Positions 1 to 18,092 of a stretch of 19,930 nt of DNA are shown here, piece after piece (positions within the stretch are counted from its first letter, which is position 1; every line of letters begins with the position of its first letter). The stretch comes from a virus (Duplodnaviria; Heunggongvirae; Uroviricota; Caudoviricetes). The DNA is taken from the IMG/VR virus record IMGVR_UViG_2529292724_000017; one strand, written 5' to 3'. The translations under genes and the position numbers were made by a program. The notes beneath the pieces are model-generated. The model saw nothing but the letters and a program-made list of their open reading frames with translations. It did not search any database and had not been told where the DNA came from.

Positions 1-288
1 TTACCGCCGCAGCCGTTCCGGCTTCTTCCACTGGTAAGTATTTTTCGCGCTCTCCCTCCGTTGTTGAGAACGGCGACGGTATGCCAGCAACTCAAGGACT
101 CTTGTTCGTATGTTGCGCATATCCACGCCGTTAAGCTCAATACCGTCACGGAGCATCACCTCAGCCACCACACGCGCGTAATTTTCAGCGGTGACTGTAT
201 CCGGCTGCGCGGCCTGTTCGTCAGCCAACTGGCTGATTCCACCAGCACAGCGGATTAATCGCAGTATTTCAGATTCGGTCATTATCAT
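1..288 (-). CDS. hypothetical small basic protein (95 aa) immediately downstream of terS; possibly packaging-associated
   Basis: Complete ORF with stop at 1..3; start overlaps terS stop by 4 nt (ATGA coupling); basic C-terminus (RRRSQQRRESAK). No family recognised. Confidence 0.45.
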   Translation of the reverse strand: MIMTESEILRLIRCAGGISQLADEQAAQPDTVTAENYARVVAEVMLRDGIELNGVDMRNIRTRVLELLAYRRRSQQRRESAKNTYQWKKPERLRR

Positions 289-770
289 GCCTGTTTTGCG
301 ACCTCATTCACTACGTCATTTTTTACCATCCGGCTGATAATCTGATTACGCAAATCGTCAATAATTGACTGCACTCTGTTTACTGCCATCGGTTTAAGCC
401 CGGCATCACGTGCCAGAATATTGGGGAGTTTTGCCAGTTCCTCGCTTACGATTTCCCCCCATATAGCCATCTCTTTTCGCACATCATCGGCGGGTATGAG
501 TTGCGCCGTTTCCTGTTCGAACCTGAGGCGCTCACGTTCGGACTGATACCAGGCCTTACGGTCATGTGGCTCCATTTCTTCCAGTGATGCCGGAACGGGA
601 AGATCAAGAAAACAGGTCAGAATGTCAGTCACCCGATAGAGTTTTAGCTTGTCATGCCCTCCGGCTGGCTGGATGTTTTTCAGCCTTGCCGCCGCAGTCT
701 GACGACATATTCCCGCTATCGCCGCCAGTTGATTAATGTTCAGCATCAGATTTTTCAGTTCTCGATCCAT
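285..770 (-). CDS. terminase small subunit, lambda Nu1-like (N-terminal winged-HTH DNA-binding domain)
   Basis: N-terminus MDRELKNLMLNINQLAAIAGICRQTAAARLKNIQP...YRVTDIL resembles lambda Nu1 as recalled (KKQLADIFGASIRTIQNWQEQGMP...YDSAAVIKWY); later ERERLRFEQE resembles Nu1 ERHRLTRAQAD. Start placed at the internal ATG (Met30 of the track ORF, whose own start at 857 is TTG). Confidence 0.6.
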   Translation of the reverse strand: MDRELKNLMLNINQLAAIAGICRQTAAARLKNIQPAGGHDKLKLYRVTDILTCFLDLPVPASLEEMEPHDRKAWYQSERERLRFEQETAQLIPADDVRKEMAIWGEIVSEELAKLPNILARDAGLKPMAVNRVQSIIDDLRNQIISRMVKNDVVNEVAKQA

Positions 771-1027: not shown

Positions 1028-2629
1028 TCATGCTCCACTCGATTTCAGTAATCCGCGATAGTCGAGGGCCGCGACACCTGCATCTATGCGCACCTTCCAG
1101 GCGACGCCATCAACAGTAAATCCCTCCTGCTCCTCAAGATATGGCGTATCAATACCATCAAGATAAGCGACCTCTATCGTGTCCATCCCCTTCGCCGCTG
1201 CCACATACCACTCCTTGTTATTGGCTTTATCAAGACGCGGCTCGACGATAACCTCTGCCATATCTTTCACCACGTTAATGATGCCGGGGTTCTGATTGAT
1301 AGTGCCTCCACCATCAATCGGAAAGAGTGATGACGATGACAGAATGGCGCGATGTGCGGCAGACTCCAGCGCAGCAGGGACCAGAACAAAAGCGGGGGTA
1401 ATATTCAGGGAGTCGCCGTTGCCATCCTCCTGTAATCGCATCAGCTTACGGGCTTCGTTAAGCCCCTCCATGTCCATATCCTTCGCAATAAGATTTTTAT
1501 GATCGGCATGGAATAACGCTTTACCATCCGTAAATTTGCCGTTGCTGGTTAACAGAAGATAAACCAGATTACCTACTGTTCTGGCGGCCGCACGCCCCAT
1601 CGCCATGGGGATTGTAGTTAACTGGGTCAGGTCATCGTTGATAATGGCCTGACGGGTAACAGAAAAAATATTACCGTATGTGGCCAGCGCAATAGGTACA
1701 CCTTTATCGCTGGTGGTGATGTATTTATATTCCGCACCTTCCGGTACTTTATCCAGCTTTGAAAAACCATTCAGACCAACGCGCTTTGCTTCATGAAAGT
1801 TTGAAAGCGATCCGGTACACGTCCATTTCTGGAACGTTTCGCCGCTGTCCTGCCAGCCTTTCAGCACTGATTTTTCAGCACCACCAGCCAGAATATGAGA
1901 AAAATCGCTGCTGCTGTGTGTGAAAGCTGCATTAACGACCTGCGAGCGATTTAAAAAATTGCCAACACTGATACCACGATCAGTTAGTGATGCCTGGGCC
2001 ATTTCAAAAAGGCTCATCATCGCGTAAGGATTTCCCCGCTCTGGGCGTTCATACCCGAGACGAGAATAAAGCCCCTGACGAATTGCATCGCCTGTTATGT
2101 TCCCGTTACCGGCATAAATATGAGTCGGGATATTTTTATTGGATGGCGTGGACTCGCGCCCCAGCTCGTTCAACAACTTTTCACGGGCCATCTCCGGTGT
2201 ACATGATGCATCCTCCAGGCACGCCATTTTGATCCCGTCGTAACGACTGCCGAACAGGCTAAACACTTCACTTATTCCGTTGATGCGCTTCTGTTCATTA
2301 CCAGCAATATTTGCCGCTCCCTGTGGCGGTGTAATCATTCCTTTAATGGTTTCCGGCATATGTAAAAAATCTCCTGTGCGTTTCGATTCAATTCGCGCCA
2401 TTACTCTGACGGATGGCAACAATTCATCAGCAAAACCGTGCTTAAGGCATTCTTTCCCATCCATCCAGGTTTCATCCTCCAGCATGGCGGTAATTTCCTG
2501 TGCTGATTTGCCCGTTTTTCTGGCATAAGCAGGGATTAACACGGTTTCCACCTTATCCAGCAAATCAGCATAATCACGCATATCGCCAGCATTTCCGCCA
2601 GAGATCCCCCACGGTTTATGGATCATCAT
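1028..2629 (-). pseudogene. ClpP-like prohead protease / HK97-like major capsid fusion, 3' portion only (gene interrupted by nested element)
   Basis: Colinear with the intact 638-aa paralog (4671..6587) from MMIHKPWGISGG onward; homology stops exactly at the 12-bp repeat 2618..2629; the first six codons of the track ORF lie in insert DNA. Confidence 0.75.
2618..2629. repeat. 12-bp direct repeat ATGGATCATCAT, left copy (putative att core / junction)
   Basis: Identical 12-mer at 12935..12946; capsid homology ends and begins exactly at the two copies. Confidence 0.65.
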
Positions 2630-2696
2630 GCAATACATTGAAATCATCCTACTGATAAATAAGATTAAAAATCACAATACAGATACGTTTGAGCTT

Positions 2697-2721
2697 CATT
2701 GCAATACGCATTGCAATACAC
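2697..2721. repeat. tandem repeat cattGCAATACgcattGCAATACAc (arm-type-like sites) near left junction; GCAATACA also at 2630..2637
   Basis: Same motif tandemly repeated at 12784..12807 immediately upstream of the integrase start. Confidence 0.5.
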
Positions 2722-2965
2722 GGTTGCTGGGTGATTTCAAAAGATGAATGCTGCGAAGGATGGAAATTTGGGAACTAGGTGGTGAATAGCACAACAAAAA
2801 ATCAGAATTCTACTAGCTTAAAATGATGCAAAAAGCATTCGTGGCATCGCAAGCGCTGTACAATTCGTTCTATAATGAAGAAAATTTCTAACAGACTTTA
2901 TCATTCAAAGGTGGAGGAGATGACAGCAATGCAACATGCATCACGCTCATACTTGAATTGTAAAG

Positions 2966-3010
2966 CTATCGTTAGAATCACAGCCTTTTTGTTCCGCTGA
3001 TCTAACGATA
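2966..3010. promoter_or_regulatory. perfect 10-bp inverted repeat TATCGTTAGA / TCTAACGATA with ~25-bp spacer, about 60 bp upstream of the cargo operon
   Basis: Seen directly; AT-rich intergenic region preceding ORF 3070. Confidence 0.3.
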
Positions 3011-3069
3011 AAACTAGTGGTAAAAGGTATATTTTTTAATTTTTCAGACGCTGGCGCGGGGTAATTAAA

Positions 3070-3372
3070 ATGAAATTTGTAAATATACGGTCATCCGAGT
3101 TGCCTGAAATAGATACCTTTGTAAAAGAATGTATCAACCAAGGACAATGGACTCTTTTCAAGGCCGAGAAGGGTGCAGTTAATGATAATAAAGTTGCTTT
3201 TTTTCTAAAGGCTGGCAAAGATTTCTTTGCATTAAATAACAGAGGAAGTGTTATCTCTGTATTTCAATCATTAGATTATAATCTTGAAATGAATGAGGTA
3301 ATTCATTTTTCAGATATTCCTAAACCTGAATCGTTGAGCAATATTGCTAGCTTAGGATTTGCTAGAGTTTAA
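3070..3372 (+). CDS. hypothetical protein (100 aa), first gene of AT-rich two-gene cargo cassette
   Basis: ORF in AT-rich block; 18-nt gap to the next gene, which has a good SD; no family recognised. Confidence 0.55.
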   Translation: MKFVNIRSSELPEIDTFVKECINQGQWTLFKAEKGAVNDNKVAFFLKAGKDFFALNNRGSVISVFQSLDYNLEMNEVIHFSDIPKPESLSNIASLGFARV

Positions 3373-3390
3373 TATATAAGGATATGTACG

Positions 3391-4281
3391 ATGGGATTAA
3401 TATCTGGAAATACACATTGGGTATTATTTTTACCTTGTGAGCACCAACCAGAAGATCGCCATGTTCAAGATTTAGTTCATGGCGTCTTTTGCTTAGAATC
3501 CTCAGGTATACAGCCATCTAATATTAGCATATATATTGATGGCCAAAATAGAGCCAACTTTAATAAGTTAATTTCGATTGCAACCCAACATAATTATACT
3601 ATCAAGCCTACATCTGAATTTTTCACCGACTGCGATACAAATAGTTATGAAAATCTAGTTATGTTTGTGACCGGACACGGAAGTATGAATGGTTTGGACT
3701 CTGCGCCGATCATAACCCCATACCGTTTATTGGACAGGTTAAAAAACACTCCTGTTCTCAAGCAAGCAATCGTTTATCTTGGTCAATGTTTCGCTGGTGT
3801 TTTCAACTACTTACCTGCTGGGCAGCGTAAGAGAGGTGAAGATGCCGACCCCGATGTCATTCTTATCGGGGCTACGAGTCTTCATGAAAGTTTGAGTAAT
3901 CCAACAACGGAAAATATTAATGGTATAGATTTTCCTTGGGTTGCAAATCAATTTTTATATCATGTATTTAAGTGGATATCATCCCCGAATGATATCGATG
4001 GGGATGGAAAACATACAGTAATTGACTCTTATAAGTATGCTGGAATCTCATCAAACATGACCAATCGTAGAATGAAGATAGGTTCTTTTGTAGCTTCGGT
4101 AGACTTGCATGAGCAATGGAATACTGCAAAAAAAGATCATGAAGCTAACTTGGCTGATCCACAAAAACTACTCCGTTATAGAGCATTAGATCAGCAATAC
4201 TATGAAAAACTGAACATTAACTATATTCATCAAGAGTGCTGGATATTAAATTCTGTACCTGCACAATCTGTTGAATTCTAA
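3391..4281 (+). CDS. caspase-like (clan CD cysteine peptidase fold) protein, 296 aa
   Basis: Hydrophobic strand then His-Gly (LVMFVTGHGS, H96) and hydrophobic strand then Gln-Cys (AIVYLGQCFAG, C133) about 37 residues apart, the pattern of caspase/clan CD catalytic dyads; SD AAGGA 8 nt upstream; EF-hand-like loop DIDGDGKHTVID at residues 201..212. Confidence 0.6.
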   Translation: MGLISGNTHWVLFLPCEHQPEDRHVQDLVHGVFCLESSGIQPSNISIYIDGQNRANFNKLISIATQHNYTIKPTSEFFTDCDTNSYENLVMFVTGHGSMNGLDSAPIITPYRLLDRLKNTPVLKQAIVYLGQCFAGVFNYLPAGQRKRGEDADPDVILIGATSLHESLSNPTTENINGIDFPWVANQFLYHVFKWISSPNDIDGDGKHTVIDSYKYAGISSNMTNRRMKIGSFVASVDLHEQWNTAKKDHEANLADPQKLLRYRALDQQYYEKLNINYIHQECWILNSVPAQSVEF

Positions 4282-4285
4282 TCCT

Positions 4286-4456
4286 TTACTTTTTTGAATA
4301 GATTGCTGCAAGTGCCGTTTTGAGGTCGTAATTTCGGCACTTGCAACTGCAACCAGAAATAGGGCGAACGTTTGACAAACGTTTAGCTATAGTCTGCCGA
4401 TGAAATCCAGTCACTTCCGCCAACTCACTTAAATTTAGAACTATCTTTTTCATCAT
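4286..4456 (-). pseudogene. truncated Nu1-like terS remnant (56 aa, DNA-binding domain only)
   Basis: Not in the supplied ORF track (below its length cutoff); translated by hand from the minus strand as MMKKIVLNLSELAEVTGFHRQTIAKRLSNVRPISGCSCKCRNYDLKTALAAIYSKK, which matches the N-terminal HTH region of the 285..770 product and Nu1; about a third the length of the full gene. Confidence 0.5.
4307..4345. other. perfect 11-bp inverted repeat TGCAAGTGCCG / CGGCACTTGCA (17-nt spacer) between convergent genes
   Basis: Seen directly; lies just 3' of the cargo operon stop and inside the terS remnant; no flanking T-run. Confidence 0.35.
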
Positions 4457-4567
4457 AATTACCCTTCAGATGTCGAACAAATAACATACAATCCATCATC
4501 TTTTCCACTTTTATAAAGTTTTACCTAATAAAATTCAGTTAGTTAGCGAATGATGATGATGTCTATA

Positions 4568-4668
4568 AAATTCAAAAACTAGCCGTTTCCCGCGATGCCG
4601 CCGCCCCGTGGCAGGCATCCCCGCCGGGAGTACCTTTTAAAAAAGGGCAGCATCTGCCGCCCTCCTGT
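4568..4668 (-). promoter_or_regulatory. conserved element, copy 2 (diverged), between capsid stop and truncated terS; terminator-like hairpin GGCAG-cat-CTGCC plus T6 on the minus strand, about 4638..4664
   Basis: Shares the aaaaactagcc...ccgccccgtggcagg...ccgggag core with copies 1 and 3. Confidence 0.45.
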
Positions 4669-4670
4669 CG

Positions 4671-6587
4671 TCATGCCGCCCCGCTCGACTTCACCATGCC
4701 CCGATAATCCAGCGCCGCCACGCCAGCATCGATACGCACCTTCCATGCAATACCGTCCACAGTGAAGCCCTCCTGCTGTTCCAGATACGGCACGTCCATT
4801 CCATCCAGATATGCCACCTCGATAGTGTCGGTGCCTTGCGCTGCAGTGACGTACCACTCCTTGTTGTTGGCCTTGTCCAGTCGCGGCTCAACCACTACCT
4901 GCGCCATATCCTTCACGACGTTGATAATGCCTGGGTTCTGGTTCAGCATACCGTTCTGGTCTACCGGGAACAGCGAAGATGATGACAGCACAGCTCGATT
5001 GGCTGCGCCTTCCAGCGCGGCAGGTACAAGGATATAGGCTGGGATAACATTAATAGGATCGCCGTTCGCATCCTCCTGCAGACGCATAGCCTTACGGGCC
5101 TCATTGAGTCCGTCTGTATCCATCCCTTTAGCGATGAGGTTTTTATGGTCGGCGTGGAACAACGCTTTACCATCTGTGAATTTGCTGTTGGCGGTCAGTT
5201 GCAGGTAGACCAGATTGCCAACCGTTCGTGCGGCGGCACGCCCCATTGCCTGTGGAATGGTCGTGAGCTGGCTCAGGTCATCGTTGATAATGGCCTGGCG
5301 TGTAACAGAGAAGATGTTTCCATAGGTGGCCAGCGCGATCGGCACCCCGCTGTCGCTGGTAGTGACATATTTGTATTCAGCACCTTCCGGGACTTTATCC
5401 AGTTCTGAAAAACCATTCAGACCGACACGTTTAGCCTCATGGAAATTCGACAGAGAACCGGTCTTTGTCCACTGCTGGAAAGTTTCCCCGCTGTTCTGCC
5501 AGCCAGTCAGCACCGACTTTTCAGCACCACCAGCCAGGATATGAGAGAAATCACTGGTGCTGTGCGTAAATGCCAGGTTCACGATCTGCGAGCGATTCCC
5601 GAAACCACTGACGCTGATACCACGATCCACCAGCGAAGCCTGCGCCATTTCAAACAGACTCATCATGGCGTAAGGGTTTCCCCTTTCGGCGCGTTCGTGA
5701 CCCAGACGGGCAAAAAGCCCCTGGCGGATAGCATCGCCGGTAATGTTGCCGTTACCTGCGTAAATGTGCGCGTTACTGGTTTTATCCGATGGGGTCGAGG
5801 TCTTACCCAGTGCCGTCAGCAGCATGTCTTTTGCTTTTTCAGGCGTGCAATCCACATCCTCCAGACACTGCATCTTGAGAGAATCATGCTTGCCGCCGAA
5901 CATGGCAAACAGATCCTTAATCTCGTTGATGCGGTTCTGTTCCGGTACAGCGCTACTGGTGGAACCTTTCGGGCTGGTGATCATCCCTTTAATTTCTTTT
6001 GGCATATGCTCAAAATCCTCAATTCGTTTTGACTCAATACAGGCCATTGCCCTGACGGCGGGTAACAATTCGTCAGCAAAACCCTGCGCTACACATTCGC
6101 GGCCATCCATCCATGTTTCATCCTCCAGCATTTCCGCCAGTGATTCGGCTGATTTTCCCGTTTTGCGTGCATATGCCGGGATCAAGACACTTTCGACTTT
6201 ATCCAGAAGTTCGGCGTAGTCGCGCATGTCGTTGGCGTTCCCACCAGAGATTCCCCACGGTTTGTGAATCATCATGAGTGCGTTTTCGGGCATAACGATA
6301 CGGTCGCCAGCCATTGCAATAACTGACGCCATAGACGCGGCGAGACCGTCGATCTGCACTGTAATTTTTGCCGGGTGTTTATTCAGAAGGTTATAGATAG
6401 CGATGCCGTCAAAAACATCGCCACCGGGTGAATGAATGTGCAGGCTGATATGGGAGATATCGCCTAGGGCTTTCAGGTCTTCGGAGAACTGCTGCGCCGT
6501 AATACCCCAGCCGCCGATCTCTTCGTAGATGCTGATATTGGCGCTGGTGCCATCGCTGGCCGCTTTGATGGTGTACCAGCCTTTCAT
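4671..6587 (-). CDS. prohead protease (ClpP-like, serine motif GLAASMAS) fused to HK97-like major capsid protein, 638 aa, intact
   Basis: N-terminal ClpP-like block (IHSPGGDVFDG...GLAASMASVIAMAG); long C-terminal region typical of major capsid proteins; colinear with both fragments of the interrupted paralog. Confidence 0.7.
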   Translation of the reverse strand: MKGWYTIKAASDGTSANISIYEEIGGWGITAQQFSEDLKALGDISHISLHIHSPGGDVFDGIAIYNLLNKHPAKITVQIDGLAASMASVIAMAGDRIVMPENALMMIHKPWGISGGNANDMRDYAELLDKVESVLIPAYARKTGKSAESLAEMLEDETWMDGRECVAQGFADELLPAVRAMACIESKRIEDFEHMPKEIKGMITSPKGSTSSAVPEQNRINEIKDLFAMFGGKHDSLKMQCLEDVDCTPEKAKDMLLTALGKTSTPSDKTSNAHIYAGNGNITGDAIRQGLFARLGHERAERGNPYAMMSLFEMAQASLVDRGISVSGFGNRSQIVNLAFTHSTSDFSHILAGGAEKSVLTGWQNSGETFQQWTKTGSLSNFHEAKRVGLNGFSELDKVPEGAEYKYVTTSDSGVPIALATYGNIFSVTRQAIINDDLSQLTTIPQAMGRAAARTVGNLVYLQLTANSKFTDGKALFHADHKNLIAKGMDTDGLNEARKAMRLQEDANGDPINVIPAYILVPAALEGAANRAVLSSSSLFPVDQNGMLNQNPGIINVVKDMAQVVVEPRLDKANNKEWYVTAAQGTDTIEVAYLDGMDVPYLEQQEGFTVDGIAWKVRIDAGVAALDYRGMVKSSGAA

Positions 6588-6796
6588 TTTTCCCCTTCCG
6601 TTACAGCGAAGCCATTTTCATCAAGCCATGCGTTGACTGCGTGCCGGACTACCTGTGCCACTCCGGGCAATGGCTGGACAGGAAGATTTTTCAGATGATC
6701 GTTGCGGTATTGCTTAAGGCGTACAACGGTTTGCGCGTCCAGATGTACGGAGCCGCCTTTAGTCTCGCCAGTGTTTAAATCGTTAATGTCACTCAT
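6584..6796 (-). CDS. small conserved protein (70 aa) translationally coupled to the protease-capsid gene
   Basis: Homolog of 13258..13464 (MS.INDLNTG...GGSVHLDAQTV.RLKQYR...PLPGVAQ.VRHAVN.WL..NGFA); ATG at 6794..6796 with SD GAGGA; 4-nt overlap with the capsid start. Confidence 0.6.
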   Translation of the reverse strand: MSDINDLNTGETKGGSVHLDAQTVVRLKQYRNDHLKNLPVQPLPGVAQVVRHAVNAWLDENGFAVTEGEK

Positions 6797-6941
6797 GATG
6801 TCCTCTACTGTATAAGTAAACAGGTTATGATGATTGATCACCAAAAGTGGTAAGTGAACAATTTTTTATCTGAAAAATAGATTTATGATGAAAAAAAATT
6901 TTTGTATGGTCTTAGATTGGAATAAACAGAAAGGTTAAAAA
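6797..6941 (-). promoter_or_regulatory. putative promoter region of the small-protein/capsid operon, with conserved TTACCACTTTT box
   Basis: Boxes aaaagtggtaa and aaaaatagatt recur at 13500..13550 upstream of the paralogous operon. Confidence 0.3.
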
Positions 6942-7655
6942 ATGGATCTCACTCGTAATGACGAACTCCTTTTGAATGATGCAGCTAGACGCTCATTTCG
7001 GGATATGGCAGACCAGGATTATCTCTCAGCTCGTCTGTGTTATAAGCACAAATTGAATTTTCAATTTTTATGGCTTTCGCAACAAGCCGTAGAGAAATAT
7101 ATTAAAGCGATTTTACTTTATAATAGAGTTCCAGTATTAAAATTAAATCACAATTTAAACAAAGGGCTGGCAAAGATTAAAGAAATCCCATATCTTGAAT
7201 TAGACCTAGATGTAAAAAGTGAGCGATTCATAGATTATCTCAATGAGCAGGGCCCAAATAGATACTTCCAAAACACTATGTATACCGAAGGCTTTGAAAT
7301 TATAACCTTGGATAGAACCATCTGGGAATTAAGAAGATACTGCAAGCCACTAAACTACTCAATTACTAACCCAAAAGGTGAAGTGATAGAAATGTTAGAA
7401 CATGAATTGAGTAGCATAAAAAATTCGAAGTCGAGGCCTTATCATACGTTCAAACTATTTGGAGGTTACTTAGAAAAAAGATTAAAAGATAATAAATTCA
7501 ATCAGGGCGACATACTTACATGGAAAAATTTATTTTTTGGAAGAAATAAAAAAAATGCAATTAGAATTGGAAGATCAATGCATGTAACTCATCCAACTCA
7601 TTATATGTACCCAAATGCAACGGAAATGCTCAGTCGTTTCTTTAAAATAAAATAA
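6942..7655 (+). CDS. HEPN-domain protein (237 aa), single-gene AT-rich cargo
   Basis: N-terminal region matches the HEPN pattern as recalled: helix, then SQQAVEKYIKAILL, then NHNLNKGL, then ...NRYF (compare hQQAvEKalKAll ... tHdL ... RYP); SD AAAGG; opposite strand to backbone. Confidence 0.5.
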   Translation: MDLTRNDELLLNDAARRSFRDMADQDYLSARLCYKHKLNFQFLWLSQQAVEKYIKAILLYNRVPVLKLNHNLNKGLAKIKEIPYLELDLDVKSERFIDYLNEQGPNRYFQNTMYTEGFEIITLDRTIWELRRYCKPLNYSITNPKGEVIEMLEHELSSIKNSKSRPYHTFKLFGGYLEKRLKDNKFNQGDILTWKNLFFGRNKKNAIRIGRSMHVTHPTHYMYPNATEMLSRFFKIK

Positions 7656-7743
7656 TTACATTCCAATTTTATTTACCGCTGTTAAATAAGTAAGGTATAT
7701 CTTTATTTATCGACATTGATAATCATGAAAGAGTATATCTTTT

Positions 7744-7960
7744 TTGCCGCACCTAGCGCATTTCTCACCGCACTTTCATCCCGCGCACTTAGGTGCGCAA
7801 TCCAACATGCACCGTACAGCCATTAAAACCAGTAATGGGGCGGGTTTGCAGGTGATTAATGCCAAACCGCGCACTTTCTTCGTATATACATGGAAAAAGT
7901 GCGGCAAGTGTATGTTTTATGAGCATTTCGCGCATCACGCGCATTTCTTGCCGCACTTTT
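7744..7960. repeat. iteron-type origin region: repeats of (T)TGCCGCAC / CGCACTTT in both orientations plus palindrome GCGCACTTAGGTGCGC
   Basis: Five or more copies within ~220 bp immediately downstream of the replication gene ending at 7965. Confidence 0.5.
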
Positions 7961-7964
7961 CAGG

Positions 7965-9374
7965 TTAAATTATCGTGATATCTCCTGAATCATCGATAAA
8001 GATAATATTCTCCCTAACGAGTTTATCAAGCCAGCGTTTAAAACCTTTGCGGCCGTTCTCTCCAAACAGAGTGGTAATATCATCACGTATAACAGAGACA
8101 TTACACGGTTCACCTTTGGCTTTTCGGCTCCGGATTGACTGCCAGAGTGCAGCGTGGTTCCCAGTCAGGTGCTTGATATCAGCAAGTTCCGGATCAGGTT
8201 CTCGTGCCTCTCGTGGCAGGTCCTGCACCACCAGCGACGAAATAAGCTCACCATCACGATCTGTGAACAATTCGATCGGACGCAGATCGAATGCGGCCTG
8301 TTTCGGCTCCTCCGCATCTTTCATCTTCGTACAGGTCAGGATTATCGCCCCACCATCCCCCTCGCGCCGGACATTGAACTCTGCATCGAGCGCAGCCCTG
8401 AAAGCACTGGAACCACGTGCGCCTTTGGTATCGTCTTTTCCTGAATGATGCACCACCAGCAACGTGGCGCCAGTCTCACGCTTGATGACGTCGCAGCCTT
8501 CAATAAACGCCCCCATGTCACGAGCATCGTTTTCATCGTTACCACCAAAGCACCGCGCTAGAGTATCTATGACAATCAGGCGAACCGGCTGCCCCGTTTT
8601 GGACTTAACGTCACGCGCAGCTTTGATCATCTCCTGCATTTCCTCACGGCGAACCGGGAAAACCGGACGGTTTACCAGATACAGATTATTTAGTTTCACA
8701 CCATGTTTTTTCTCCCACGCCTTTATTCGCCGCGGAACGCCAATACCACCTTCACCTACTACGTACATCACAGCGCCGGCTGATACCGACTTCCCCGCCC
8801 ACTTCATCCCGGCTGCAACGTGACAAGCCCAGGACACCGCCAGAAAACTTTTATACGAACCGCTCGGGCCGTAGATACTGCTCAGGCTGTTAGCGGGAAG
8901 ATAACTTTTTAACGTGTAATCCTGCTCCTGATCGTACCCATCAGAGCCCACGCTTAAAGGAAGGCTGTGCCGCAGTGACTCCTCTCGCACAGAGACTTCA
9001 ACCTGTTCACGCAGACGAGAAAGATATTCCCTCCAGTCCTCAGGCTCATGGTCGGGGATTCCTTTATACAATTTGGCATCCTGCACGCCAGCCAGCGCCA
9101 GCTTTTCAGCAATGTTATTAATCTGGATAGGCTTTATATTCCCTGCCAGGTAAATCCGCACGGCACGACGGCCATCATCCACAATGCGCAGGTTATCCAG
9201 CTCTGCCAGTTGTTTTGGCCCAAGGTAAACAGGAGGAGTGGTATCTTCGGCAATCTGTTTACCAAGCCCCTCTTCCCAACCCTTCGCATGGGCGTATGCT
9301 TCTGACCCGGCAAAAATAACTGCCTCCGTGAATTTTTCTTTTGGCAGGTGTTTCAGATTCGGTGCGTTTTTCAT
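7965..9374 (-). CDS. replication initiator: primase-associated N-terminal domain fused to RepA/DnaB-like RecA-fold ATPase (469 aa)
   Basis: Walker A GPSGSYKS and Walker B-like LIVIDTL; first ~125 aa shared with the 14246..16063 product. Confidence 0.65.
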   Translation of the reverse strand: MKNAPNLKHLPKEKFTEAVIFAGSEAYAHAKGWEEGLGKQIAEDTTPPVYLGPKQLAELDNLRIVDDGRRAVRIYLAGNIKPIQINNIAEKLALAGVQDAKLYKGIPDHEPEDWREYLSRLREQVEVSVREESLRHSLPLSVGSDGYDQEQDYTLKSYLPANSLSSIYGPSGSYKSFLAVSWACHVAAGMKWAGKSVSAGAVMYVVGEGGIGVPRRIKAWEKKHGVKLNNLYLVNRPVFPVRREEMQEMIKAARDVKSKTGQPVRLIVIDTLARCFGGNDENDARDMGAFIEGCDVIKRETGATLLVVHHSGKDDTKGARGSSAFRAALDAEFNVRREGDGGAIILTCTKMKDAEEPKQAAFDLRPIELFTDRDGELISSLVVQDLPREAREPDPELADIKHLTGNHAALWQSIRSRKAKGEPCNVSVIRDDITTLFGENGRKGFKRWLDKLVRENIIFIDDSGDITII

Positions 9375-10251: not shown

Positions 10252-10296
10252 ACGTACGTACGTAATAGCAACATCCTATGAGGTTACGTACGTACA
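10252..10296. promoter_or_regulatory. two palindromic operator-like sites (ACGTACGTACGT and TACGTACGTACA) flanking the promoter of the RHH gene
   Basis: Two near-identical palindromes ~33 bp apart; the second overlaps the RHH start codon; region lies between divergent genes. Confidence 0.45.
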
Positions 10297-11251: not shown

Positions 11252-11297
11252 ACGCATGGCAACGTATAATTTATCGCTTAATACGTTGCCATATCTC

Positions 11298-11543: not shown

Positions 11544-12771
11544 TCCTTTTCTTAATTACTTTTACTGTATTTTCTTCACCCACCAGCCCATCAAGGTAGT
11601 CAACCCATCGGTCCAGTGCTTCTTGCTTTTGAGGGATATACTTGCTGCGGTTATAGACTCCGGCCACGCCCTTTATGGTATGCCCCAGCAGCTGCTCTAC
11701 GACCATAAAATCAACGCCCATATCGTTAAGGCTTGTCGAGAACGTTCGTCTCAAATCATGTAATGACCAGCGTTTTTCATGTTTCAGAGAGATAAAGTTT
11801 GTGCATCCCATCGTACTGACGGTTGAATCAGATTTCAGTTCGCCAAATATGTAGCCTCTCCTTTTAGTCTCTTCGTGCAGGTTTACGATCCACTGGCGCA
11901 TTTTTTGAGGAACGGGGCGAATAATTTCTTCGCCGTTTTTACTGTGCTCTTTAGGTACTGTCCAAATCCACTTATCGAAATCCCACTCATCCCATGTAGA
12001 TAAACGCGCCTCACTCAGCCTGCAGCCAAACACGAGACACAAAATCGCCATCCTTTTTTTGTAATTCATTACACGGGTTTTGCCTTTACCATGAAAGTAC
12101 ACTCCCCACAGATCGGCGACGTAGCTTTCCTCAAGTAGCCGCTCTCTCTTGTTCTGATACTTACCGATATCACCAGGGCTCAAATCATCAAGCACATTGC
12201 ACCGCACATACTGGCGCACCCGGCAGTATTTGAAGATCTGCTTTAACTCAATCAGCATTGCAGCAGACTGAACCGGCGCGATTTTCTTTATGCGGTCGAA
12301 GCACTTGATCCAGTCTGACAGACCGCATTTCTCGACAGGAAACCCGCCGATGTAGGGAAAAATGTATCTCTCATAACGGCGATAGAGCCGTAAAGTCTCT
12401 TTGCGCTTTTCCCTGGCATAGTTATCAAACCAGTAATCGATAGCGTTCTTCACAGTTACTGGAGTGAACAGGTTCTCTTTGGTGAGTTTGTTCTCTATTC
12501 GTGGGTCGAGTCCCTGAGATAGCCATGCCCGGCACTCGTCCCTTTTCTCTCTGGCCTGTTTAAGGGTCATATCTGGATACTTGCCTAACGTCATCCAGAC
12601 GGGGGCGCTTTGTCGGCCGGAATGTCTGAAGAAATACACAAAGCTCACAGTGCCACTAACGCTCACTCTGACAGACAGTCCACGACCATCTGCCACCATC
12701 TTTTGACGCGGCTGGGGTTTACCATGTAAGGCCTTTAACGCCTTGTCGCTTAACTTGTTCTCGCCCGCCAT
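11536..12771 (-). CDS. int: tyrosine site-specific integrase, P4-type (411 aa)
   Basis: Length and motifs of phage integrases (C-terminal LHDLRRTF, LLGH, then Y in VYNRSKY); paralog at 18701..19930. Confidence 0.8.
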   Translation of the reverse strand: MAGENKLSDKALKALHGKPQPRQKMVADGRGLSVRVSVSGTVSFVYFFRHSGRQSAPVWMTLGKYPDMTLKQAREKRDECRAWLSQGLDPRIENKLTKENLFTPVTVKNAIDYWFDNYAREKRKETLRLYRRYERYIFPYIGGFPVEKCGLSDWIKCFDRIKKIAPVQSAAMLIELKQIFKYCRVRQYVRCNVLDDLSPGDIGKYQNKRERLLEESYVADLWGVYFHGKGKTRVMNYKKRMAILCLVFGCRLSEARLSTWDEWDFDKWIWTVPKEHSKNGEEIIRPVPQKMRQWIVNLHEETKRRGYIFGELKSDSTVSTMGCTNFISLKHEKRWSLHDLRRTFSTSLNDMGVDFMVVEQLLGHTIKGVAGVYNRSKYIPQKQEALDRWVDYLDGLVGEENTVKVIKKRSA

Positions 12772-12783
12772 AAAACCTCATTC

Positions 12784-12807
12784 TGCAATACACATTGCAA
12801 TACACAC
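12784..12807. repeat. tandem repeat TGCAATACAcatTGCAATACAcac immediately upstream of the integrase start
   Basis: Same motif as 2697..2721 at the other end of the inner element. Confidence 0.5.
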
Positions 12808-12934
12808 TTAACTGCAACGCCGAAAAACAGTAGAAAAGCAATGCAAACAACACCTCTTCTTTCTTCATAATTAACAATAAGTTAATGAATGAATACGGTT
12901 CTTCATGCGTACCCATGAGGTAGTGTGAAGGATA

Positions 12935-12946
12935 ATGGATCATCAT
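12935..12946. repeat. 12-bp direct repeat ATGGATCATCAT, right copy (putative att core / junction)
   Basis: Identical to 2618..2629. Confidence 0.65.
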
Positions 12947-13258
12947 CATGGCGTTCTCCGGCATCACTACACGATCGCCAGCCATTGCGACCACCGAAGC
13001 CATTGAAGCCGCAACACCATCGATATAAACCGTAATGTCTGCCGGATGATTCCGTAGCAGGTTATAGATGGCGATGCCTTCAAACACATCACCACCTGGT
13101 GAATGGATCCTCAGATTGATATGTGAAACATCGCCAAGGGCTTTCAGGTCTTCCGCGAACTGCTTTGCAGTAACACCGAAGCCGCCAATCTCCTCATAGA
13201 TAGATATATCCGCCGCTCCACGAACATCCGCCGCCTTAATGGTGTACCAGCGATTCAT
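12935..13258 (-). pseudogene. ClpP-like prohead protease / capsid gene, 5' portion only (N-terminal ~108 codons)
   Basis: MNRWYTIKAADVRGAADISIYEEIGGFGV...GVAASMASVVAMAGDRVVMPENAMMMIH is colinear with the N-terminus of the intact paralog; the track ORF 12719..13258 reads on into insert DNA after the repeat. Confidence 0.7.
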
Positions 13259-13589: not shown

Positions 13590-13776
13590 ATAAATACCCC
13601 GCCATCTGAACACGTTTTGACACTGGCAACTCCACCTGGCAGGTGAAAAACAGATTTATTTATATATTTCAATTAATTGCAAGCTGGTCTAATGACAGGG
13701 AGAAAAAAATATTGTACAGGTGAAAACAGAAATAATTTTTAATTATCAATAAATTATCAAACATGCTGCCGCCGCC

Positions 13777-13873
13777 ATGAAAATGCAAAAACCAGCCTTT
13801 TTCCGCGACGCTCCCGCCCCGTGGCAGGTCACTACACCGGGAGGACCCATAAAAAAGCCGGATTGCTCCGGCT
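13777..13873 (-). promoter_or_regulatory. conserved element, copy 3 (near-identical to copy 1 over ~75 bp) with terminator-like hairpin GCCGGAgcaaTCCGGC plus T6 on the minus strand (13850..13873)
   Basis: Direct-repeat copy lying upstream of the small-protein/capsid module rather than downstream of the capsid gene. Confidence 0.45.
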
Positions 13874-14005: not shown

Positions 14006-14232
14006 TCACCTGTTCACCTTTTGATATTTTCTCTTTTAATTCATAATGTTAAGGGGTGAACAGTTTCACAAAAACTATTCACCAACTGTTCACCACTGTT
14101 CACCCTTGAAGCTCAATAAACAATCAAAAAGGTGAACAGTGAATAGTTTGGTGAACAGTTCATAAATAACTGCTCACCCTATAATATACTGATATAAAAG
14201 ATATTTATGACAGGGTGAACAGTGGTGAACAG
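14006..14232. repeat. iteron-type replication origin: eight or more copies of GGTGAACAG / CTGTTCACC in both orientations with AT-rich spacers
   Basis: Copies near 14009, 14055, 14086, 14096, 14131, 14151, 14214 and 14224; immediately downstream of the primase-helicase gene. Confidence 0.65.
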
Positions 14233-16901: not shown

Positions 16902-18092
16902 TTATCGTTGGTGGTTAGACGCCCCGTATGTGTTTCCGGCACTGCGGGGCGTTGCTCTTTGTATTTCAACAATCCTTTCGGTGTGTTTCATGTTATGAGC
17001 GCATGAAACACACGTCAAGGCTTTTTGTATTTCTTTTTTTGTGTATACTGAAACACACCGATGATTAGGAGTTTCAGAAATGGCAACGGCTAACAAAAAC
17101 GCAAAATCACAACTGACAACTGTCAGAGTCCCACTAGATGTTATGCAAGGGATGGAATCCGTTAAGCTGGACGGCGAAAGCAATGCCGGATTTATCGTAA
17201 CCGCCATGCGCGGAGAAATAGCCCGCCGCCAAGCAGAAGGCAGCGGAGAAAATCCCCTTGTGTCGTCACTGGATGCCCTGGCTAAGGTCGAACAAATCGG
17301 CATCAAAGCAGCGGAAGAAATCGGGCAGCTTGTCACCGTTGCACGCGAAGAACTCCAGCGTCGCAAGACCAAAGAACCAGAGTAATCACCATCAGCGCCG
17401 TGGTGTAAGGTATTACGGCGCATTGCTATGCAGGACAACACAATGACCGATAAAGAATTGACCAAAACATTATCACCGGCACGGAAAAGACGGCGCAGAA
17501 AGATAGAGCATGAATCAGAAAGATTCGCGCCATGTGCTTTTGCTCTTGAGAAATTCCTTAAAGAGCACAGGAAAAAGCTCTCGTTGCAAACCTTGGAACG
17601 AACCAAATCTGACTGATCACATTGCCCACCAGCCGCAAATGTGGCATTGTTGGTGATGCTCATGCGTTGGGGATAACGTGTAGCTTGTGTCGAGGGGCCA
17701 CCGTAGCGGGTGGCCTTTGTTTTGCCTGTTATCCGGCAATTGTGGCGCTTCGCCACACGGTTGATATAATCCCACTGCTCAGATTCATTTTTTGCGCAGT
17801 AGGTTAATTGTTCACAAAGGCGCTCCGGCAACGGGGCGCTTTTTGTTTTTATTAGTTTGTAGAAACCTGACTCAGAGATAATGCTCATATTCTGATTGCC
17901 GTCAGGGGTGTAAGTTAAATTTACTCCCTTTTTATCATCAAACATCTGCAACGCTCTGGCGTTAACAATATTGGTTTCACTCCCGCCAGTAAGGCCGGAA
18001 ATAACCGGAATAATTTCGGCAAAATTTTGCAGATTCTGTTTTTCAGGACGAACGAAGCCCCGCCCTTGTTCGGGAGAATATCCAGTATTCAT
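16902..18092 (-). CDS. uncertain long ORF (396 codons): the N-terminal ~150 codons look protein-like, the rest is Ser/Arg/Cys-rich and overlaps plus-strand genes
   Basis: Only 17620..18092 looks coding by composition; probably a gene remnant or a spurious extension. Confidence 0.2.
   Translation of the reverse strand: MNTGYSPEQGRGFVRPEKQNLQNFAEIIPVISGLTGGSETNIVNARALQMFDDKKGVNLTYTPDGNQNMSIISESGFYKLIKTKSAPLPERLCEQLTYCAKNESEQWDYINRVAKRHNCRITGKTKATRYGGPSTQATRYPQRMSITNNATFAAGGQCDQSDLVRSKVCNESFFLCSLRNFSRAKAHGANLSDSCSIFLRRLFRAGDNVLVNSLSVIVLSCIAMRRNTLHHGADGDYSGSLVLRRWSSSRATVTSCPISSAALMPICSTLARASSDDTRGFSPLPSAWRRAISPRMAVTINPALLSPSSLTDSIPCITSSGTLTVVSCDFAFLLAVAISETPNHRCVSVYTKKEIQKALTCVSCAHNMKHTERIVEIQRATPRSAGNTYGASNHQR
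16919..16952 (+). promoter_or_regulatory. conserved hairpin ACGCCCCG-(18 nt)-CGGGGCGT upstream of the Ash-like gene
   Basis: Paralog of 10191..10226 with a compensatory base-pair change. Confidence 0.4.
17080..17385 (+). CDS. hypothetical protein (101 aa), possibly an RHH-type regulator divergent from the replication operon
   Basis: SD AGGAG; balanced composition; TTVRVPLDVMQGMESV suggests a beta-strand plus helix; same position and orientation as the RHH gene of the inner element. Confidence 0.45.
   Translation: MATANKNAKSQLTTVRVPLDVMQGMESVKLDGESNAGFIVTAMRGEIARRQAEGSGENPLVSSLDALAKVEQIGIKAAEEIGQLVTVAREELQRRKTKEPE
17428..17616 (+). CDS. hypothetical small basic protein (62 aa)
   Basis: Same frame as and downstream of 17080..17385; basic (ARKRRRRK); weak support. 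Confidence 0.25.
   Translation: MQDNTMTDKELTKTLSPARKRRRRKIEHESERFAPCAFALEKFLKEHRKKLSLQTLERTKSD

Follow-up and report, generated by a model that had tools for sequence, protein, structure and literature searches.

We have discovered a family of very small proteins in phage satellites that, judged by sequence, correspond to the DNA-binding domain alone of a small terminase subunit (TerS) and that occur with a dedicated cosB layout. The family was recognized from a 56-aa open reading frame (ORF), here called mini-TerS, in a 19,930-nt stretch of DNA (IMG/VR record IMGVR_UViG_2529292724_000017; hereafter, the window). The window is E. coli chromosome beside tRNA-Ile2 and holds one satellite, a phage-inducible chromosomal island (PICI), within another. 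Mini-TerS lies in the inner element and, on the sequence comparisons below, is regarded as a genuine gene and a DNA-binding-domain-only homologue of the small terminase. It was shown to belong to the packaging module of PICI-type satellites, which consists of the capsid gene, cos and mini-TerS. The short family and its cosB layout are not described in the literature searched, where queries on DUF1441 and on PICI cosB/TerS returned no account of the short form; the nested satellite itself is known.

Competition between Gram-negative cos satellites and their helpers for the helper terminase is understood in one case only, that of Rpp, which is encoded by Gram-negative PICIs such as EcCICFT073 (Fillol-Salom et al. 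2019, PMC6739421; Murialdo & Feiss 2022, PMC9026076). Helper-embedded PICIs, to which the inner element belongs, are stated to lack terS (Tommasini, Mageeney & Williams 2023, PMC10111431), and no description of the mini-TerS gene was found in the main text of that paper. Because a conserved, cos-linked, single-domain copy of TerS with an extra site of its own is present in them all the same, a second and simpler route to bias packaging is suggested. The system is a very small protein-DNA system and easily testable.

The mini-TerS gene and its family

The gene and its putative ribosome-binding site are located as follows.

4286..4456, minus strand: mini-TerS, 56-aa ORF with an ATG start, translation MMKKIVLNLSELAEVTGFHRQTIAKRLSNVRPISGCSCKCRNYDLKTALAAIYSKK; a stand-alone winged-helix domain homologous to the N-terminus of DUF1441-type TerS
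4462..4467, minus strand: Shine-Dalgarno-like GAAGGG, 5 nt upstream of the mini-TerS ATG, with a purine-rich equivalent in other members of the short family

Every significant match of the 56-aa ORF falls in the N-terminal part of TerS. Pfam DUF1441 is matched at positions 1-46 of 147 only (E 8.8e-7; 29.4 bits, which is below the curated gathering cut-off of 35.1 bits) and PHROG 141, 'terminase small subunit', at positions 13-63, its N-terminal third (E 1.8e-10). BLASTP against the DUF1441 protein of the outer element (161 aa) gave 44% identity over 34 aa, and a profile of the short family aligned by hhalign with residues 14-64 of helper TerS (E 5.8e-5). In the alignment to DUF1441, the ORF stops exactly at the last helix of the winged-helix DNA-binding domain; the conserved central MEPxDRKAWYQSExER region and everything C-terminal of it are missing, and the regions that serve TerL binding and oligomerization in full-length TerS are absent from the 56-aa protein. 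These results bear out a first-pass annotation of the window, made from its letters alone, in which the inner terS had been read as reduced to its N-terminal DNA-binding domain, and the alignment with full-length TerS now sets the truncation point at that last helix. No remnant of the C-terminal part of TerS was found 3' of mini-TerS, where the stop codon of the convergent gene is only 4 nt away, and no terL was found 3' of mini-TerS in any locus inspected, although the gene lies downstream of cos.

DUF1441 proteins are the TerS of lambdoid cos phages, because the gene immediately upstream of terL in a lambdoid prophage encodes a 175-aa DUF1441 protein, and because DUF1441 relatives at the left genome ends of cos phages (cdtI, Tritos, mEp043, mEp213, Gifsy-2 and Fels-1) are annotated as small terminase. 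A tblastn search of a phage collection with the 56-aa ORF returned, among the records listed, only the N-termini of terminase genes or equivalent unannotated ORFs.

An AlphaFold2 model of the 56-aa protein built with 50 homologues (predicted local distance difference test score of 80) has a beta-alpha-alpha-wing-alpha topology, and the predicted fold is a MerR-type winged helix. Its Foldseek matches include the TerS DNA-binding domains 7lwr, 6hn7_B (lambda TerS N-domain) and 1j9i (gpNu1), with template modeling (TM) scores of 0.59-0.67. NCBIfam and PADLOC scans gave no match for the ORF or for the adjacent cargo, and PDB sequence searches with the outer 161-aa protein and with the short-family profile gave no meaningful match.

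Among representative proteins, most of the nearest relatives of the ORF are short, with annotated lengths of 50-90 aa, and a profile search yielded 80 homologous clusters, every one of them short. Their hosts range across the Enterobacterales: Klebsiella, Enterobacter, Citrobacter, Salmonella, Kluyvera, Raoultella, Pluralibacter, Dickeya, Pectobacterium and E. coli. Counted from the conserved start codon onward, family members are 54-66 aa long and have the core LTIxELAxVTGxHRQTxxKRLxxxxPxxGSSxKxKxYDLKxALxAIY, which is followed by a short tail partly conserved within subgroups; 11 columns are invariant across 50 sequences. The short family is under purifying selection, with ratios of nonsynonymous to synonymous substitution rates (dN/dS; pairwise Nei-Gojobori) of 0.05 to 0.3: 0.05 (11 synonymous to 2 nonsynonymous changes), 0.09, and 0.16-0.32 for more distant pairs, these values being limited to pairs with an estimable dS, which is saturated in many pairs. 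A scan of genome contigs with the family alignment recovered only two Kluyvera loci, and in complete E. coli genomes searched with another family member only cos regions were found, the short gene being absent except in the window's own element type.

The surroundings of the short gene are constant upstream, where the protease-capsid gene and cos are found, and variable downstream. Convergent cargos of 287, 290 or 464 aa adjoin it in elements inserted in the capsid gene of lambdoid prophages, and in L026, a chromosomal tRNA-Ile2 PICI, the genes 3' of it are co-directional. Since all clusters are short whatever the neighbor, the short form predates and is independent of the cargo seen in the window; it is ancestral to the family and was not made by the neighboring gene. 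We have therefore dropped the explanation, put forward in the first-pass annotation, that the rest of terS was replaced by the caspase-like cargo.

A different nested satellite, in E. coli 19KM1776 (L011, 8561-9022), has a DUF1441 gene that ends after ...ELETLPDIL, about 50 residues short, and adjoins a cargo gene (262 aa) that converges on it; the cosB there belongs to the (CAG)/NRNL type. Truncation by cargo is plausible for that gene.

The cosB layout and the helper phage

The elements between the capsid gene and mini-TerS are listed below; offsets are counted from cosN, and the R3 position in lambda and PICIs was taken from PMC9026076.

4671..6587, minus strand: intact ClpP-protease/major-capsid fusion gene of the inner satellite, upstream of cos
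4646..4658, minus strand: terminator-like hairpin and T-run after the capsid gene (terminator scan)
4595..4606, minus strand: cosN-like 12-nt sequence GGGCGGCGGCAT of the inner element (lambda: GGGCGGCGACCT), inside a conserved cos block at about 4573-4634
4550..4561, minus strand: (CAT)4 element at +46..+57, the R3-equivalent position of cosB
4489..4502, minus strand: inverted GATGATG copy AAGATGATGGATTG at +108, found only with the short gene
4466..4477, minus strand: third, weaker element TTCGACATCTGA at +133, just before the ribosome-binding site

The DNA between the capsid gene and mini-TerS contains CCACGGGGCGGCGGCATCGCGGGAAACGGCTAGTTTTTG, which is the cosN region of lambda altered at a few positions; the lambda-type cos that precedes rppA in CFT073 is TTACGGGGCGGCGACCTCGCGGGTTTTCGCTATTTATG. 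The same cos block also precedes the DUF1441 gene of the outer element and the prophage TerS. In 12 assembled loci, the short gene starts 150-153 bp after the first G of cosN, and the inverted GATGATG stands at +107/108. The (CAT)4 element is invariant in all short-gene loci (+46/47) and in mEp043-like helper phages.

When viral contigs were scanned for this cosN type, two kinds of site could be told apart. The inverted site at +108 was present at 22/22 short sites and at 0/~55 full-length TerS sites. The latter, phage-type sites, many of them on contigs of phage size, have GTCATCATCATCAT at +47 and a 162-aa TerS that starts at +131 and has the recognition helix VHRQTVAARL. At the 22 sites with both (CAT)4 and the inverted GATGATG, a short ORF was read at 21, starting at +149 to +153; the exceptions are L088, with a start at +141 (the script took an upstream Met), and L061, for which no ORF was called. 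Both kinds of cos occur together on three contigs, and on one of these the helper cos and the satellite cos share a strand with 13.2 kb between them, the arrangement to be expected of a satellite inside gene C of its helper. The satellite of this composite contig (L029) is 97% identical to window positions 2345-7968.

By these comparisons, the right helper has both R3 and the HRQT recognition helix in common with the mini protein. At the position of the inverted site the helper has a degenerate GATGTCG, and the second, inverted site is the only cosB feature specific to the satellite. A cdtI-like prophage, whose cosB reads GGCGGCGGCAGCA, had led us to the view that the satellite cosB differs from that of the helper, as with Rpp; this was withdrawn, since mEp043-like phages and the helpers on composite contigs carry the same (CAT)4.

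Across phages (viral contigs L029-L119; L011 and L022), the recognition helix was seen to co-vary with the triplet repeat at R3: HRQT with (CAT)4, NRNL with (CAG)3-4, and HRDT with (GGC)3AGC. This looks like a simple specificity code for DUF1441-type terminases, and it could help to predict the islands that a given phage mobilizes, among them those that spread defence or virulence cargo between genera.

Possible roles of the mini protein

Mini-TerS is hypothesized to be a TerS mimic, reduced to the DNA-binding domain, that acts at cosB to bias the helper terminase, a reading that we favor tentatively and with slightly less than even credence. The mini protein would bind the CAT/ATG elements of the satellite cosB and pair with the DNA-binding domain of helper TerS through the alpha1/alpha3 surface used by the lambda Nu1 dimer; the candidate pairing residues (V15-T16-G17, L45, L49 and Y53) are among the best conserved in the family. 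The nucleoprotein complex so formed would favor assembly of helper terminase on the satellite cos, possibly at the expense of the helper cos, and the route would be a minimal relative of the Rpp strategy without the change of R3 specificity. Action at cos, as proposed in the first-pass annotation, fits the fixed place of the gene beside a lambda-type cos and the recognition helix it has in common with helper TerS; the role itself we would call plausible. In its most specific form, which we consider rather unlikely, mini-TerS would be the smallest known satellite packaging hijacker: bound to the satellite-only inverted site, it would pair with the helper TerS domain on the shared (CAT)4 and give the satellite cos a cooperative advantage with neither a dimerization domain nor a change of R3, and an arms race with helper TerS would account for the fast change of mini-TerS in some lineages.

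Three known systems bear on this reading. Like Rpp, mini-TerS is satellite-encoded, lies directly downstream of a lambda-type cos and has an N-terminal winged helix that resembles the helper TerS domain. It differs from Rpp in lacking C-terminal dimerization helices, and in that the satellite R3 equals the helper R3 ((CAT)4 at the same offset on the same contig) instead of diverging from it, with an extra inverted site present. Compared with RppA (c1503, from the CFT073 genome; a 144-aa Nu1-like protein encoded downstream of a lambda cos and followed by a 93-aa gene), the mini protein gave no BLASTP match and an hhalign probability of 5%, and PDB sequence searches returned no RppC chain. The mini protein is therefore not a member of the Rpp family, though its action may resemble that of an Rpp. 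With DUF1441 TerS (mEp043, mEp213, cdtI, Tritos, Gifsy-2 and Fels-1; PHROG 141), it has a homologous N-domain, the HRQT helix of the mEp043-like group and the place downstream of cosN and the (CAT)4 R3 in common. The differences are its length (56 aa, as opposed to 162-175 aa), the loss of MEPxDRKAWYQSENER and the C-terminal tail, a start at +150 instead of +131, and the absence of a following terL.

The third system is lambda gpNu1, whose DNA-binding domain (residues 1-68, PDB 1J9I) is of the same fold class; the two inverted sites of mini-TerS loci, about 60 bp apart with an AT-rich spacer, likewise recall R3 and R2 of the lambda cosB R3-I1-R2 arrangement. Unlike mini-TerS, the gpNu1 domain is part of a larger protein and is not free-standing, and no significant sequence similarity links the two (E 0.08). 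A lead toward pairing comes from their hhalign register, itself not significant, in which Nu1 I11, F12, G13, S43, A44, I47 and A51 fall on V15, T16, G17, L45, K46, L49 and Y53, and several of the mini-TerS residues in this interface register are invariant or nearly so. These residues of the Nu1 dimer interface are listed in PMC6739421, and the Nu1 sequence used here agrees with every residue number given in that paper.

Several points weigh against the TerS-mimic reading. With an R3 identical to that of its helper, the satellite might need no extra factor to be packaged. In RppA, the C-terminal dimerization domain, which mini-TerS lacks, is required for TerS binding and for function (PMC6739421). 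None of the Foldseek E-values is significant, and excisionases and MerR regulators match as well as TerS domains do: TorI, RdfS, BldC, CarA and MtaN have TM scores of 0.5-0.7 (E > 0.06), so the fold alone does not discriminate. A sigma-70-like promoter for mini-TerS was looked for in its region and on its strand, and none was detected. The window's own lineage, in which four allele variants were compared (the window and Klebsiella L003, L010 and L029), adds to these points; synonymous to nonsynonymous counts and dN/dS are as follows.

Window and L010, 56-aa ORF: 1:10, dN/dS about 3
Window and L010, 296-aa cargo: 16:2, dN/dS 0.03
Window and L010, 100-aa cargo: 5:1, dN/dS 0.05
Window and L029, 56-aa ORF: 3:5, dN/dS 0.46
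Window and L029, 296-aa cargo: 25:4, dN/dS 0.04
Window and L029, 100-aa cargo: 7:2, dN/dS 0.07
Window and L029, capsid: 8:1, dN/dS 0.04

Thus the dN/dS of mini-TerS in this lineage is 0.46 to about 3, as against 0.03-0.07 in adjacent genes, and the cargo pair is under strong purifying selection (0.03-0.07). Nearly invariant residues are changed in single variants (T16A and K25N in L010; D44G in L003), and the Klebsiella copies reside in elements whose capsid and primase genes are split and which contain insertion sequence (IS) insertions. This particular copy may be losing function; the pattern is as compatible with relaxed constraint as with fast adaptive change of surface and wing residues.

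An interference-only decoy is one alternative to the TerS mimic, and one that we judge improbable. Here the mini protein would occupy the (CAT)4 R3 or cap the helper TerS domain and so lower helper packaging with no direct benefit to its own cos, the satellite gaining through its own capsid gene or copy number. The recognition helix and R3 are the same as those of the helper, every region able to recruit TerL is absent from the mini protein, and Rpp and the Ppi protein of Staphylococcus aureus pathogenicity islands (SaPIs) are precedents of satellite proteins that block helper TerS (PMC6739421). The satellite cos would, however, be blocked equally, and the strict coupling of the gene to the satellite-only inverted site at +108, with a fixed start at about +150, argues for action in cis on its own cos.

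We hold it to be just as improbable that the ORF in this lineage is a functionless relic, drifting while the cargo is kept. The substitution counts listed above, set against those of the neighboring genes, the altered residues and the split genes and IS insertions of the Klebsiella copies all lean that way, and the window lineage has the shortest C-terminal tail of the family. Yet all four variants and dozens of contigs have an uninterrupted frame, this lineage retains the ribosome-binding site and each of the 11 residues that are invariant in the family, and the same element occurs in an intact-looking helper prophage with an uninterrupted capsid gene; the fast surface and wing change also fits an arms race with helper TerS. 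The decaying pseudogene that the first-pass annotation had named as its refutation is not found at the level of the family, where the frame is conserved and dN/dS is 0.05-0.3, and in the window's own lineage the gene is relaxed or diversifying.

Least probable of all is a small winged-helix transcription factor descended from the TerS domain, serving as an autoregulator or as a repressor or activator of satellite late or cargo genes with the CAT/ATG elements as operators: most stand-alone helix-turn-helix proteins of 55-65 aa are regulators, the start codon of mini-TerS itself is closely preceded by the +108 and +133 elements and the fold matches include MerR-type regulators, BldC and excisionases, but the elements are in fixed register to cosN, the first is at the R3 position also used by the helper, the cargo changes while the gene persists, and the promoter search had come up empty on its strand.

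The inverted repeat and the nested satellites

The remaining features of the inner element and those of the outer element are as follows.

4307..4345, no strand: perfect 11-bp inverted repeat, arms TGCAAGTGCCG (4307-4317) and CGGCACTTGCA (4335-4345), 17-nt loop
3070..4281, plus strand: convergent low-GC cargo, comprising a 100-aa gene (3070-3372) and a 296-aa caspase/legumain-like gene (3391-4281)
2618..2629, plus strand: attachment (att) core ATGGATCATCAT, 12 nt, at the right end of the inner element, with a second copy at 12935-12946
12719-13258 and 1028-2647, minus strand: ClpP-protease/capsid fusion gene of the outer PICI, split by the inner element
285..770, minus strand: DUF1441 protein of the outer element, full-length type, 161 aa, with its own cosN (955-966) and a (CAT)-type R3 (910-921)

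The inverted repeat had been noticed in the first-pass annotation, and its 11 perfect base pairs and position inside the 3' part of the ORF were confirmed; the loop measures 17 nt. It had also been placed between the convergent genes, but it lies wholly within mini-TerS (codons 38-51, CKCR...TALA) and 26 nt beyond the stop codon of the 296-aa gene that converges on it. The hairpin is stable on either strand (-23.2 and -24.8 kcal/mol; z -2.2 and -3.2) and has no U-tract; it was not called by the terminator scan and had no match in an Rfam search. As a class, inverted repeats in the window exceed chance, because 8 perfect ones of at least 11 bp (loop 3-40) are present where 0.19 are expected from Markov shuffles. 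The full 11-bp stem is present in the window and L003; that of L029 is reduced to 10 bp and that of L010 to 8 bp with a mismatch, neither loss being compensated. Other members of the short family lack the repeat (best 6 bp). A conserved protein or RNA site of the family was thus rejected, given the absence of the repeat outside this lineage, its uncompensated erosion in two of the four variants, the want of a U-tract and the empty Rfam search.

In other lineages, the mini gene and its convergent cargo are separated by a spacer of 96-187 nt that contains a perfect or near-perfect hairpin (13 bp in L016, 9 bp in L019, 13 nt at 92% in L013), and other convergent junctions in the window also have hairpins (11256-11292 and 7895-7960). 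The repeat is probably such a hairpin marking a convergent gene junction; here it would overlap the ORF because the stop codons of the 296-aa gene and mini-TerS are 4 nt apart (4281 and 4286) and leave no spacer in this lineage. The further seven perfect inverted repeats of the window are 11-14 bp long and include those at 7895-7960, 10254-10295, 11256-11292, 14054-14141 and 16981-17013, two being at convergent junctions; the cluster at 14054-14141 resembles iterons or an origin of the outer element.

Bounded by the two ATGGATCATCAT cores, the inner element measures about 10.3 kb. Its minus-strand order is integrase, replication genes, [a plus-strand HEPN cargo], protease-capsid gene, terminator, GC-rich conserved block, AT-rich stretch and mini-TerS. 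It has the traits of a helper-embedded PICI, namely a tyrosine integrase with an AlpA-type element, insertion at ClpP MMIH in a protease-capsid gene, and a duplicated core. It belongs to the group C:CLP_protease:110, at the MMIH motif of the ClpP-capsid gene inside a tRNA-Ile2 PICI, and the same composite has been published (20.6 kb, in 24 E. coli genomes; PMC10111431).

The 296-aa cargo protein has widespread homologues among Proteobacteria, to which some sources give the name Peptidase C13 or caspase family, in keeping with the caspase-like label given to it at first. The cargo pair (100 and 296 aa) is a cross-genus example of an identical cassette, with only three synonymous differences between E. 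coli and Klebsiella. As the capsid 3' end is only about 80% identical while the cargo is nearly the same, the sequences point to recent exchange of the cassette, with a putative boundary near GGCTAGTTTTTG.

The outer terS, first put at about 162 aa, measures 161 aa. Its surroundings have the EcCICFT073 layout of cos, TerS-like gene and a gene of 93-95 aa, with a DUF1441-type protein in the Rpp position. The window ORF 1-288 (minus strand, 95 aa), downstream of this gene, is 73% identical to the CFT073 93-aa gene after rppA and is a conserved, uncharacterized partner of Rpp-position genes; it has no Pfam or NCBIfam match. The cos beside the 161-aa gene (955-966) has the cdtI-like cosN type with a (CAT)-type R3. 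A second cos of the outer PICI is found at 13700-13860 (minus strand; cosN 13808-13819; cosB GGCGGCGGCAGCATG), and its cosN and cosB are nearly identical to those of the cdtI-like helper prophage. Two cos with different cosB recall cos1 and cos2 of EcCICFT073 and suggest that the outer 161-aa protein is a true Rpp analogue, of DUF1441 type.

The att core, which encodes the ClpP MMIH motif, includes the reverse complement of the cosB CATCAT motif. With one mismatch allowed, CATCATCATCA has 5 sites in the window as against 0.65 expected. Three of them fall on the cosB R3 elements, one on the inner and two, which overlap, on the outer; attL and the outer capsid gene have one each. The overlap of att core and cosB motif may be a coincidence of Met-Met-Ile codons.

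Related arrangements were seen at other loci. In E. coli F11 (L002; window-equivalent 2500-3608), a decayed composite was found in which the outer PICI keeps only the attR side of the inner element; IS1 cuts the remnant, which comprises the 100-aa gene and the first part of the 296-aa gene, and the chromosome beyond is rearranged. E. coli strain 2A (L012 and L022) has a related satellite with the 161-aa DUF1441 form inside the large terminase gene of a cdtI-like lambdoid prophage, a further helper-embedded configuration (published site group in gene A). Lastly, one contig (L087, IMGVR_UViG_2767802151_000003) carries two identical modules of cos and mini gene, at 1138 and 12026 and thus 10,888 bp apart, which represent either a tandem satellite pair or a concatemer captured by assembly.

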